Shown here piece after piece: positions 26,784 through 30,278 of a stretch of DNA of 64,000 nt. This DNA comes from an archaeon (GTDB lineage Archaea > Asgardarchaeota > Thorarchaeia > Thorarchaeales > Thorarchaeaceae). The stretch is taken from positions 1 through 64,000 of the forward strand of contig JAJRWI010000010.1 in NCBI GenBank assembly GCA_024276825.1, read 5' to 3'. The number at the start of each line of letters is the position of its first letter. Positions within the stretch are counted from its first letter, which is position 1. The notes under the pieces were generated by a model, which was given only the letters and a program-made list of their open reading frames with translations, made no database searches and was not told the origin of the DNA. The position numbers and the translations under genes are program-made.

Positions 26784-28544
26784 TCAGTCGTCTTGCTCCT
26801 TCTTCTTGCCTTCATACAGTTCATCCAGTTCTCTGATTGACTGTTCATCAAGGGTTATAGACTCTTCAGAGTCCTCATCCTCAGATGTTTCAACAACAGC
26901 AGGAATATCTTTTCCAAGAGTGCCGAGTATTTTGTCCAGCTCGGCAATGGTCTCATCATCGATTGCACTCACTTCTTCGTCGTTCATTGCAATGACTTCA
27001 TCACTGGAGAATGCTTCCAAAGCGTCAGTAAGGTCTTCATGCGATGTCTGCTCGATTTCAGCGGCCACAATATCATCAGCGTCGAGAGCCTCAGTGATCA
27101 GGTCAATCACCAACTGGGTGTCCATATCTTCGGAGATCTCAGCTTCTGCAGGTTTGGCCACGGCAACTGTGGATTCAATTTCTACTGGCAACTCGCCCTC
27201 CTTTGATGATATGCCCTCCACTGACACCTCGAATTCTTCAGGCTCATGTATTTCAATGAGACCCACAGGCTCCTCAACAGGCATTGAGGGAGAAACCACC
27301 TTTGGTTCTTCGACCTCTTCACTGACTTCTACATGAACAGTTTCATCCATAGTAGATTCAGCTGTAGTTTCAACAGCTATCTCAAATGGTTCTTCCGATT
27401 GCGATGTTTCTGCTCTTTGCATAGATTCAGCTTCAACCTCAGCCTTGACTTCTGGAGAAATACTAGTGGAAACCTCTTCAGGGGGCAGCTCATCGTCTTC
27501 GACTTCAATCACTTCTTCCTCGATAATCTCATACTCGTCCAAGTCCTTTATGGGATGGCCCTCTTCATCAACATAGATTATCTCCTCAACTACTTCATAT
27601 TCCTCCTCCTCTTCCTCCTCCACCTCTTCTTCTTCCGCTTCCTTCTCCTCGGTCACTTTGGTGAATCTCAGTAATTCGGAAACAGGAAGGTCAGGAAGTG
27701 CGACGCCCACATATTGAGCAGCAGCTGTCATCAATATCCTAAGCATCTCATCTCTTCTACTCTTATCAATTGCAACCATGGGATAAGTGGGTACACCAAG
27801 GATCTTTTGGACCACTTCTGGCTTCATTGCATTAGGCTTGTCCTGCTTATTTGCTAATGCTATAATAGGCACTTTGGGCGCATCCCGTTTGATTAGCTTC
27901 AAGATGTCCTTGCTGATGAGAACATTCCTGAGTGTTGAGTCACAGACGAGAATTATCACATCAGCACCATGGAAGTAGAAGCGCCAGAGCGTTCTGAATC
28001 GTTCTTGACCCGCAAAGTCCCATAGTACAAGACTGTAGTTCCCAAATCGAATATTCTCAACTGTTTCAAGATTCAATGCGATTGTGGGAACATACTGTAA
28101 GGGCGGTGTGTCGCCAAGAAGCAAATGAAGAGTTGTGGTCTTTCCAGTGCCACCCTCACCCACAAGAGCAATCTTCAAGCGAGTGATCACATGGGGTTCA
28201 ATCAATTCCTCAAACCGTTCTTGAACAGATTCCAGTCCCGACTTTTTAACCTCAATTCCCAGTGCTTTTGCTGCTTTCTCGGCCCTTTCAGAAATTTGCT
28301 GTTCATCCTCGGCCTTATCAGTTGCAAAGACCACGAGAACATCATCACTAACAGAGCGCCCAATGAACTTGTTTTATCCAATGATCAATGGTAATGCTTC
28401 AAGATCACTCTGTTCGTTCTTTAGTTCCTCGCGTGTTGACACGAATTCCCTAATCTGCTCTTCAGAAACCTCAACTGGCCAGTATTGGACTGAGGCAAGG
28501 ACTTTGCCAGTGGGAGTAAGCACAAGGAAAGTATTGTGAATCAT
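26784..28544 (-). CDS. Longin-like domain + Arf-like small GTPase + long acidic tail; in-frame TAA at codon 57 (28374-28376)
   Basis: ATG 28544 with GGTGA RBS, in the same frame as ORF 26784-28334; GEGGTGKTT, YVPTI, WDFAGQERFRTLWRFYF, NKQD; Glu/Asp-rich C-terminus. Confidence 0.8.
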
Positions 28545-28657
28545 TAAGAGGTCACCAGTTCAAGTTCAGACAGTATACTTTGTGGAATTTCATCTATCTA
28601 ATAGTATTGTGGTTGTTGTTCTAAATGTTACTTGGATGTAGATTGTTCAAAATTAAT

Positions 28658-28917
28658 CGGAGCGGGGTTCGCTAGGAAAAGTAGTTCAAGCGAACCTCCC
28701 GCATCCGCGACTTCCAATTGTTGAAGCACCTATTCAAACCAAATGGTAATGCGCAAGTATTGGAGTGGCAATTGGGGATCATGCCACAAAGGGGACCAAT
28801 GCTTTTGAATCTCACAACGGGGGACCAATGTTATGCGAGATTTCATGACGGGGGAAGTCAGTGTTTCAACAATTGGAATGTCGAAGGTCTGCACAGATTA
28901 GACGAGCTAAATTGTGC
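28658..28917 (+). ncRNA. Candidate structured ncRNA with multiple GGGGA-bearing loops
   Basis: 5' hairpin 28658-28707; 18-bp stem 28712-28729/28861-28878 enclosing several hairpins; 3' hairpin 28891-28917; G-U pairs mostly favour the plus strand. Confidence 0.55.
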
Positions 28918-29138
28918 TGTATATTAATTCGTGAAGGCACATAAAAACTTATTCTAATTATAAGCGCATTGCGAAAAGTCCAAGATTATGACTTGATTTA
29001 ATTAAGATTGATATTGACAGACTTTGAATTAGAGTATAAAAGAATTAGAATAAACCAATCTTTTCTCGTTGTTTTTCACATAGGATCGTTCATTGTAGCA
29101 ATAGAACTAAGATAGATTAAGAGAGAGCAATAATGGCT

Positions 29139-30278
29139 CTATCTTGGAAAGTTGTCTCTTAGCAGACGCAAATGTTGATGGACCATTGCCATTTGCTTGG
29201 GATCATCTGGATTTTTCTCAAGCTCCACAATTAATGTCTGTAGGAAGTATTCTGGGAAGAACAGTCGTACTCGAATATCATTAAGCAAGAACAGCCATTT
29301 GTCATAATCGCCTGAGGGGCCTTTTCTTCGCTTCTCAGAAACAACGCGGTATTTTTTCAGCTTCTGAATGGCTGCCTTCAGTTCTTTCGGTGGTATTCCA
29401 AGAGTGGCCTCCAATTCAGCAAGATTGACAGGGCGATTTCTCAAAACCACAAGGATGTCATAGCAATCGGGATCAGCAAGAATTGATGCCACGGCGACGG
29501 TATCTTCAGGGGTTTTCTGCCATTCTGTGAGAAATTCTAGAACTTCTCTCTTGTACTCTGCGGCCAGTTCAGGGTCTAATGCCTTGCTGGCTGCTTCCAT
29601 AGCTATGAGGGGAGGGGCTCTGAATACTTCAATGTCTTTTATCATGAACACGCATGTACGACCTATTGCATCAACCCATTCACTCTTGACCAGACCAAGT
29701 TCTTCAAATGGTGAGATTATCGAGTCGACGCTAACACTGGGCAGCCCTGTCACCATTTTCAACCATTCTTCGAGTTCCTCCTTGGAGATTCCGCCCTTCC
29801 ACAGCTTGGGAAAAACGGCCCTTGAAACTTCATCTGCAAAGAGCCTTGCAAGACGGGACTCGTCTGCCATTCCAGCAAGTCGTATGATTCGTCGGTATGT
29901 GTTCTCCAGTTCTGCTTGAAGTTCTGCATCGGTCATGGATATTACTGCATTGACAATTGGAGACACAACTGAAGTGATGGCGGCTTCATACATTTTGGGA
30001 TCTTCAGAAGGAGTCAGTAACAATGAGACACAGTATTGTTCTTCTTCACGCACTACACCAGTGTAATAGGACGCAACATTGTATTCTTCCCCACCAATTC
30101 TGATGCTCAATGATGCAAAACCGGCGGCGGCATCCCCCATGGCGTGTGATGTGAAAATACGCATGATTTCTGTGTCAAGATCCTCCTTATAGTAGTCTGC
30201 AAAATCAGCAGGTACTTTCGCTTTTAGGACAGCTCCAACCTTACTGTCCCAATCTATGAGTAGAAGGGCTACTGGCAT
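29139..30278 (-). CDS. Longin/uDENN-like domain protein with C-terminal winged-helix repeats (NPRL/folliculin-like architecture)
   Basis: N-terminal LIDWDSKVGAVLKAKVP resembles the F(D/H)...GP....P start of uDENN/longin domains; two HTH-like segments C-terminally. Confidence 0.55.
   Translation of the reverse strand: MPVALLLIDWDSKVGAVLKAKVPADFADYYKEDLDTEIMRIFTSHAMGDAAAGFASLSIRIGGEEYNVASYYTGVVREEEQYCVSLLLTPSEDPKMYEAAITSVVSPIVNAVISMTDAELQAELENTYRRIIRLAGMADESRLARLFADEVSRAVFPKLWKGGISKEELEEWLKMVTGLPSVSVDSIISPFEELGLVKSEWVDAIGRTCVFMIKDIEVFRAPPLIAMEAASKALDPELAAEYKREVLEFLTEWQKTPEDTVAVASILADPDCYDILVVLRNRPVNLAELEATLGIPPKELKAAIQKLKKYRVVSEKRRKGPSGDYDKWLFLLNDIRVRLFFPEYFLQTLIVELEKNPDDPKQMAMVHQHLRLLRDNFPR

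Follow-up and report, generated by a model that had tools for sequence, protein, structure and literature searches.

The interval between positions 28658 and 28917 of the window, by which we mean the whole stretch of 64,000 nucleotides that was analysed, belongs to a family of structured RNAs that is real and new. Judging from sequence comparisons, we consider that it is probably a free-standing gene, specific to the Thorarchaeaceae, for a stable structured non-coding RNA that is read from the minus strand under its own BRE/TATA promoter, starts near G28917 and ends near 28649, after a conserved 3′ hairpin (P7). In the full-text literature we found nothing on this RNA and almost nothing on non-coding RNAs of Asgard archaea beyond rRNA, tRNA, SRP RNA and RNase P RNA.

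An earlier note on this DNA had proposed a novel structured RNA of about 260 nt in this interval, built of a set of named helices, with four GGGGA motifs and a short sequence present twice. Reading the letters of the window, we found every one of these helices. The folds of both strands are far better than those of dinucleotide-preserving shuffles, with −97.3 kcal/mol (z −5.1) for the plus strand and −89.3 kcal/mol (z −6.7) for the minus strand, and 0/200 shuffles as good in either case. The most conspicuous helix corresponds to a perfect 18-bp inverted repeat, 28712-28729 with 28861-28878. The four GGGGA lie on the plus strand at 28774, 28791, 28820 and 28851, all inside 82 nt, while the pentamer occurs 80 times on both strands of the whole 64-kb window, so that about 0.05 would be expected in such a span. 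The sequence GGGGACCAATG does occur twice in the element. The GC content of the element region is 45-48% and that of the adjoining tract 26-33%. No conserved open reading frame was found in the homologues: the median length of their longest ATG-initiated frame is 24 aa, and the shortest is 3 aa.

In the minus-strand sense, for which we argue below, the predicted RNA would be laid out from 5′ to 3′ as an optional P1, the P2 stalk, C-rich motif 1, P3, P5, the CUUGCGCAU element, an A/U-rich joiner and P7. As supported by covariation, the P2 stalk would close a multi-way junction bearing P3 and P5, followed by P7. The length of the RNA is about 190-270 nt across genera. The features in the window are the following.

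28940..28957, minus strand: putative BRE/TATA promoter of the RNA gene, which reads TTAGAATAAGTTTTTATG; an equivalent near-invariant site is found in homologues and it resembles tRNA, RNase P and SRP promoters
28649..28917, minus strand: predicted RNA of about 269 nt, with inferred ends (G28917 stands 23 nt past the TATA box; a U4 run, 28649-28652, follows the 3′ hairpin); one match to each of covariance models R1 and R2 in the genome
28891..28917, minus strand: P1, 5′ hairpin (GCACAAUUUAG / CUAAUCUGUGC), seen in folds of both strands; a lineage-variable extension
28861..28878, minus strand: P2 closing stem, 5′ strand in RNA sense, pairing with 28712-28729; double-sided changes at 12/12 aligned pairs (55 sequences)
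28846..28860, minus strand: C-rich motif 1 in a small predicted hairpin, UGAC[UUCCCCC]GUCA; CCCCGU in 55/55 homologues, unpaired probability 0.67 vs 0.40 overall
28807..28843, minus strand: P3 hairpin (consensus GGAACUCG / CGAGUUCU) with C-rich motif 2 (GGUCCCCC) in its loop; 97% of cells paired, double-sided changes at 4/8 pairs
28755..28804, minus strand: P5 arm (AUUGG / CCAAU), from folds, with C-rich motif 3 (UUGGUCCCC, 28791-28801), the latter from GGUCCC counts in 55 homologues
28765-28787, minus strand: inner hairpin of P5, from folds, genus-specific, with a fourth C-run in its loop
28749..28757, minus strand: invariant CUUGCGCAU element, which contains the palindrome UGCGCA; UUGC[GA]CA in 54/55 homologues
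28712..28729, minus strand: P2 closing stem, 3′ strand in RNA sense, pairing with 28861-28878; from covariation counts
28659..28709, minus strand: P7, conserved 3′ hairpin (CGGAUGCGGRAGGUUCGC ... GCGAACCCCGCUCC), from covariation; G-C/G-U alternation at four pairs in RNA sense

Among the homologues, motif 1 reads (U)UCCCCGUC within a mini-hairpin of 3-4 bp, the P3 loop holds CAUUCGCAAC plus motif 2, ACGGUCCC, and motif 3 of P5 reads UUGGUCCC, all in RNA sense. P7 is often directly followed by AACAUUUU. In other genera, the P1 region forms a different 5′ hairpin or none. P3 of the window carries a compensatory swap from A-U to U-A.

Covariation among homologues, which had been named as a test of the RNA reading, was found in three helices, P2, P3 and P7. 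In the cells of these helices, scored in a MAFFT alignment of 55 homologues, standard pairs account for 85.2% of the cells, compared with 36-50% when the partners are slid by 1-3 columns, double-sided changes are present at 20/32 pairs vs 8-13 in the slid controls, and 0/500 shuffles matched the observed pairing values; since the sequences are related and MAFFT misaligns the variable parts, these counts support the helices and are not formal probabilities.

We also determined how the element is distributed. In its own genome (2.9 Mb, 98% complete), the element is the only full-length match. BLAST detected homologues in the two remaining genomes of the genus and, beyond it, in one further genus of the family. 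From four sequences we built a covariance model of the core (R1), which matches 68/86 genomes of the family Thorarchaeaceae, in 11/16 genera, with a single match per genome except for one genome with three. A second covariance model of 181 positions, built from 55 diverse sequences (R2), matches 24/26 sampled genomes of the family, including genera that R1 had missed, and 0/124 genomes from 26 other Asgard families, so that among the 27 families sampled the RNA is found only in this one. Among the public Thorarchaeota loci that encode the 379-aa protein of the neighbouring gene, the RNA core stands just downstream in 56/65, in a constant relative orientation, and the gene that comes after the RNA is nearly always a longin/roadblock-Arf-like GTPase. 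The copy-number check that had been suggested, in the genome and in Asgard homologues, thus returned one copy at one syntenic site.

The genome with three matches (G002, same genus) deserves a separate description. Its two extra copies are compact, permuted paralogues (L013:1440-1600, plus strand, and L014:1480-1640, minus strand; contigs C112 and C304) at unrelated loci. In each of them, a CTTTATAT box of its own precedes a closing stem GGGCGUGG / CCACGCCC by about 23 nt, and both retain the C-rich motifs and ACUUGCGCA. The other genomes searched never gave more than one match.

The RNA is co-directional with both neighbour genes, and we hold with little doubt that it is read from the minus strand of the window, from about 28917 to about 28649. 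The earlier note had placed it on the plus strand, antisense to both flanking genes, and had counted four G-U pairs in favour of that strand; the promoter, the balance of G-U and A-C cells and the tetraloops all indicate the opposite. Nearly all homologues carry a near-invariant AGAAAGCTTC[AT]TATG at 33-73 nt upstream of the conserved core. In the genome under study, the same BRE/TATA type precedes tRNA genes (e.g. GGAAAGCTTTATGA), the RNase P RNA gene (GAGAAGTTCTTAATGG) and the SRP RNA gene (ATGTTTTTACG), with GTTTTTAC located 23 nt ahead of the SRP RNA 5′ end. In the window, counting 23 nt past TTTTTAT (28947 to 28941) leads to G28917, the first base of the terminal hairpin, and where the 5′ extension of a genus is short or long, the structure likewise begins 21-23 nt after the TATA box. 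This spacing of 23-24 nt between TATA and the first structured base is like that of the tRNA, RNase P RNA and SRP RNA genes of the genome. The promoter of the window is a weaker match than that of most genera. Indeed, within 4 mismatches the motif was absent at six of the scanned loci, including the window and one of the two relatives of the genus. When the family promoter consensus was searched across the own genome, 15 weak sites came up.

The promoters of stable RNAs in this organism (tRNA; SRP RNA, C36:3366; RNase P RNA, C24:52522) share a consensus, approximately RAAAGCTTTWAWA, whose end lies 22-30 nt ahead of the 5′ end of the RNA. This consensus is useful for finding more unannotated RNA genes.

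The composition of the helices points to the minus strand as well. Over P2, P3 and P7 of the 55 homologues, 216 cells are G-U or U-G when read as minus strand, vs 44 A-C or C-A cells, which the plus strand would turn into G-U. At several pairs, G-C and G-U replace one another in 11-23/55 sequences, where the plus strand would have C-A mismatches. In RNA sense, the predicted hairpins contain 33 tetraloops of known types (15 UNCG, 7 CUUG and 11 GNRA), and in the antisense 12 GNRA with zero UNCG and zero CUUG; the apex of P7 is often C(UUCG)G, and apical UUCG or CUUG loops exist only in the minus-strand sense. P7 is followed by four or more T in a row in 19/56 sequences and by a run of A in 2/56, and the window has UUUU at 28649-28652 in RNA sense. 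Folding energy is uninformative with respect to the strand, as the mean difference over 60 homologues is 0.5 kcal/mol and the plus strand is favoured in 33/60.

Several other identities have to be weighed against a minus-strand RNA gene. A plus-strand RNA that shows GGGGA in its loops and acts as a protein sponge in the manner of CsrB/RsmZ could draw on the slightly better fold of the plus strand in the window and on a GCAA tetraloop together with an invariant U-G pair in one arm. However, we regard it as very unlikely: the plus strand has no conserved upstream promoter and the canonical one faces the other way, C-A mismatches are frequent in the helices (up to 23/55 at one pair), and the apical loops would be CGAA or CAAG, which are not stable classes. 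The kinship with CsrB/RsmZ is also lost, since the motif on the transcribed strand is not GGA, no Rfam CsrB/Rsm model matches, and a search for a CsrA gene with Pfam PF02599 gave no match in the 98%-complete genome while control genomes behaved as expected. A divergent member of a universal RNA (RNase P RNA, SRP RNA or a snoRNA-like rRNA guide) would account for an RNA of about 200-270 nt that is single-copy and family-wide like housekeeping RNAs, and one genome shows a complementarity of 11-13 bp between motif 1 and the 16S 3′ trailer. This is extremely improbable in our estimation, because full-length RNase P RNA (169 bits) and SRP RNA (120 bits) are encoded on other contigs, no C/D or H/ACA architecture can be discerned by eye, and most of 19 trailers from other genomes lack the complementarity while the RNA motif is invariant. 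Moreover, cmscan against Rfam 15 returned nothing on the element of the window on either strand at E up to 10, nor did an Rfam search of ten homologous loci from other genera at E up to 1. The Rfam comparison that had been recommended, with CsrB, SRP and RNase P among the models, therefore leaves the novelty of the RNA intact. Finally, the perfect 18-bp inverted repeat and the four G-runs beside a tract of 26-33% GC could suggest a DNA element, either a MITE with terminal inverted repeats or an origin-like G-string array, both of which had been listed as alternatives. We attach practically no weight to this reading. In this genome, which is 98% complete, and in nearly every relative a single copy is present, always at the corresponding syntenic position; the inverted repeat varies between genera and yet still pairs, including G-U pairs that are specific to RNA, in a pattern of compensatory base changes; the AT-rich tract houses the promoter of the gene; and neither a switch in GC skew nor neighbouring Orc1/Cdc6 genes are present here.

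We also considered and set aside narrower identities. For an H/ACA guide, many homologues have an ACA after P7, but P7 contains only a 2x2 internal loop and no pocket. For a C/D guide, there are no conserved RUGAUGA/CUGA boxes. For either kind of guide, Rfam gave no snoRNA match on the element. The defining features of a kink-turn, a tRNA-like RNA, a Y-RNA, U6 or a telomerase template are missing by eye, and ARAGORN detected neither tRNA nor tmRNA. A G-quadruplex made of the four G-runs is not retained either, as these runs belong to the template strand and the family consensus has just GGG at two of them.

The relation of the RNA to its neighbours calls for another alternative, in which it would be the structured 5′ leader or attenuator of the GTPase mRNA, with the conserved promoter driving one transcript and P7 working as a conditional terminator, in a riboswitch-like manner. 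The order from RNA to GTPase on one strand is kept family-wide with a distance of 80-130 nt, a clean T run of at least four residues follows P7 only in 19/56 sequences, and a short alternative pairing of CUUGCGCA with the 3′ strand of P2 is possible. On the other hand, the 80-130 nt between P7 and the GTPase start contain a second conserved promoter-like element (e.g. ACAGCTTAATCTAT) and a GGTGA ribosome-binding site, and the conservation of the P7 sequence far exceeds what a terminator needs. In addition, the two compact extra copies of one genome have their own TATA and lie at unrelated loci, and an AT-rich relative whose 379-aa protein is 66% identical has both genes separated by only about 125 nt, a gap that contains no structured RNA (L098:2640-2770). 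We thus judge the leader reading unlikely, and we keep a small place for it because clean terminators are present in only a third of the homologues, so that read-through into the GTPase gene may occur. Since this distant relative has the adjacent pair without the RNA, the protein pair would be older than the RNA, and the RNA would have been gained, or lost, in a pre-existing gene pair. The same observation weakens the functional tie to the longin-type neighbours that had been suggested from the position of the element; these genes are probably no more than the landmarks of a conserved insertion site, and we continue to regard the RNA gene as free-standing.

The neighbour genes themselves have some particular features. 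The 379-aa protein (29139-30278, minus strand) is 83-90% identical over most Thorarchaeota loci. It has no Pfam family above threshold, with weak HTH/TFIIE-alpha-like matches at residues 265-333, and no relative in the PDB; its related clusters contain only Asgard hypothetical proteins. The longin-Arf-like GTPase gene (26784-28544, minus strand) has an in-frame stop at 28374-28376 that divides it into ORFs of 56 and 516 aa, while its relatives have one open frame starting with MIHNTFLV, e.g. of 344 aa in one genome (G001). Possible explanations of this stop are an error in the assembly, a nonsense mutation of recent date or read-through. The C-terminal tail of the GTPase, of about 300 aa (26784-27600, minus strand), is extremely rich in Glu and Asp, which is unusual for small GTPases.

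As a consequence of transcription from the minus strand, the motifs that the RNA displays are C-rich (UCCCC, GGUCCC) and not GGGGA. The proposal that short motifs are shown in loops therefore holds for conserved motifs in predicted unpaired regions and fails for the identity of the motif; the fallback offered in the earlier note, UCCCC loops if the minus strand were used, was the correct reading. CCCCGU is found in 55/55 homologues, and GGUCCC at least once in 55/55 and at least twice in 40/55. Their predicted unpaired probability is 0.65-0.67, compared with 0.40 over the whole RNA. Across the family, three of the C-rich motifs are conserved, and the fourth, which corresponds to GGGGA at 28774 in the loop of the inner hairpin, is genus-specific.

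Being single-copy and family-wide, with a strong promoter, an elaborate fold and invariant unpaired motifs, the RNA almost certainly has a defined molecular partner. We tentatively propose that a conserved scaffold presents three C-rich elements to a G-rich partner, which could be a protein or an RNA. The invariant C-rich elements, UCCCCGUC once and GGUCCC twice, which are predicted to be unpaired, would be the working surface that captures this partner, and the remainder of the fold would keep them in a fixed geometry. If the partner were a C-specific RNA-binding protein, the RNA could serve as an RNP scaffold or a decoy. If it were a G-rich RNA, the GGGGA-type Shine-Dalgarno variants of some mRNAs would be candidates, and by analogy with RsaE/RoxS it is possible that the UCCCC loops pair with the G-rich ribosome-binding sites of a subset of genes. 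In the own genome, the Shine-Dalgarno sequences are GGAGG/AGGTG/GGTGA, with 5-8 fold enrichment, and GGGGA, GGGGG and AGGGG are enriched 4.6-5 fold upstream of start codons; GGGGA itself is 4.6-fold enriched and is found upstream of the starts of 41/1664 ORFs. At the start sites of the same genome, no enrichment was seen for GGACC, which is complementary to the extended form of two motifs, or for the full complements of GGUCCC and CCCCGUC, and genome-wide the exact complements of the motifs are no commoner than expected by chance.

The 3′ trailer of 16S rRNA was tried as a target and rejected. In one genome (G021), motif 1 can form 11 Watson-Crick base pairs, or 13 with G-U pairs, with a trailer segment that is part of the leader-trailer processing stem. 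Yet CCCCGUC is invariant and GACGGGG is absent from most of the 19 trailers of other genomes, and a pre-rRNA target was discarded because this complementarity is not conserved in other Thorarchaeota. Separately, the helix-45 region of the 16S rRNA of this genome (L124, G021:C2) contains about 90 nt of extra hairpins between GUAGCGG and CUGCGGAUGGAUCACCUCCU, an insertion that may be an rRNA expansion segment or an intron. The distance between these two sequences is longer still in another genome (G048, L138) and has the normal value of 49 nt in most. The CCUCCU end of the 16S rRNA was not found within 420 nt in nine other full-length loci.

Even more tentatively, these RNAs might form an undescribed Thorarchaeaceae class in which a rigid scaffold uses UCCCCGUC and two GGUCCC to capture a G-rich partner, serving either as a protein decoy or the core of an RNP, or as an anti-Shine-Dalgarno regulator with several sites; in that case, no large trans-acting RNA with a regulatory or scaffold role would have been described in Asgard archaea before it. 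Asgard archaea are the closest known relatives of eukaryotes. Identification of the partner would give access to a new part of Asgard cell biology. The strand, ends, motifs and covariance model that we provide are a concrete target for mapping in metatranscriptomes and for pull-downs.

With respect to known systems, the closest parallel for pairing through C-rich motifs is found in Bacteria. In RsaE/RoxS of Firmicutes (Rfam RF01820) and in RNAIII of Staphylococcus, UCCC motifs pair with G-rich ribosome-binding sites. The Thorarchaeaceae RNA similarly has several UCCC(C) motifs in hairpin loops or single-stranded stretches, and its own genome has G-rich Shine-Dalgarno variants. However, it has no sequence or Rfam (RF01820) similarity to RsaE/RoxS, it is archaeal and two to three times as large, its fold includes a stalk and a multi-way junction, and its motifs extend to GGUCCC and CCCCGUC. 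The likeness to CsrB/RsmZ is one of design principle only, namely a short motif repeated in the loops of a multi-hairpin RNA, whereas the motif here is C-rich, not A(N)GGA, and is present in just 3-4 copies. In Archaea, sRNA41 of Methanosarcina mazei masks the ribosome-binding sites of several mRNAs. It is unrelated in sequence, much smaller and from another phylum, but it is a precedent in this domain for a trans-acting RNA that pairs with ribosome-binding sites. The SRP and RNase P RNAs of Archaea are of similar size, are single-copy and have the same strong type of BRE/TATA promoter with the same spacing; both are located elsewhere in the genome with full-length Rfam matches, and the element fits neither model. 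Lastly, OLE, raiA, ROOL and GOLLD are bacterial or phage-borne RNAs to which we detected no relation in sequence or structure, while the RNA described here is confined to one archaeal family. What it has in common with them is a stand-alone gene, an elaborate covarying fold with invariant unpaired nucleotides, a lineage-restricted distribution and a genomic context that gives no function.
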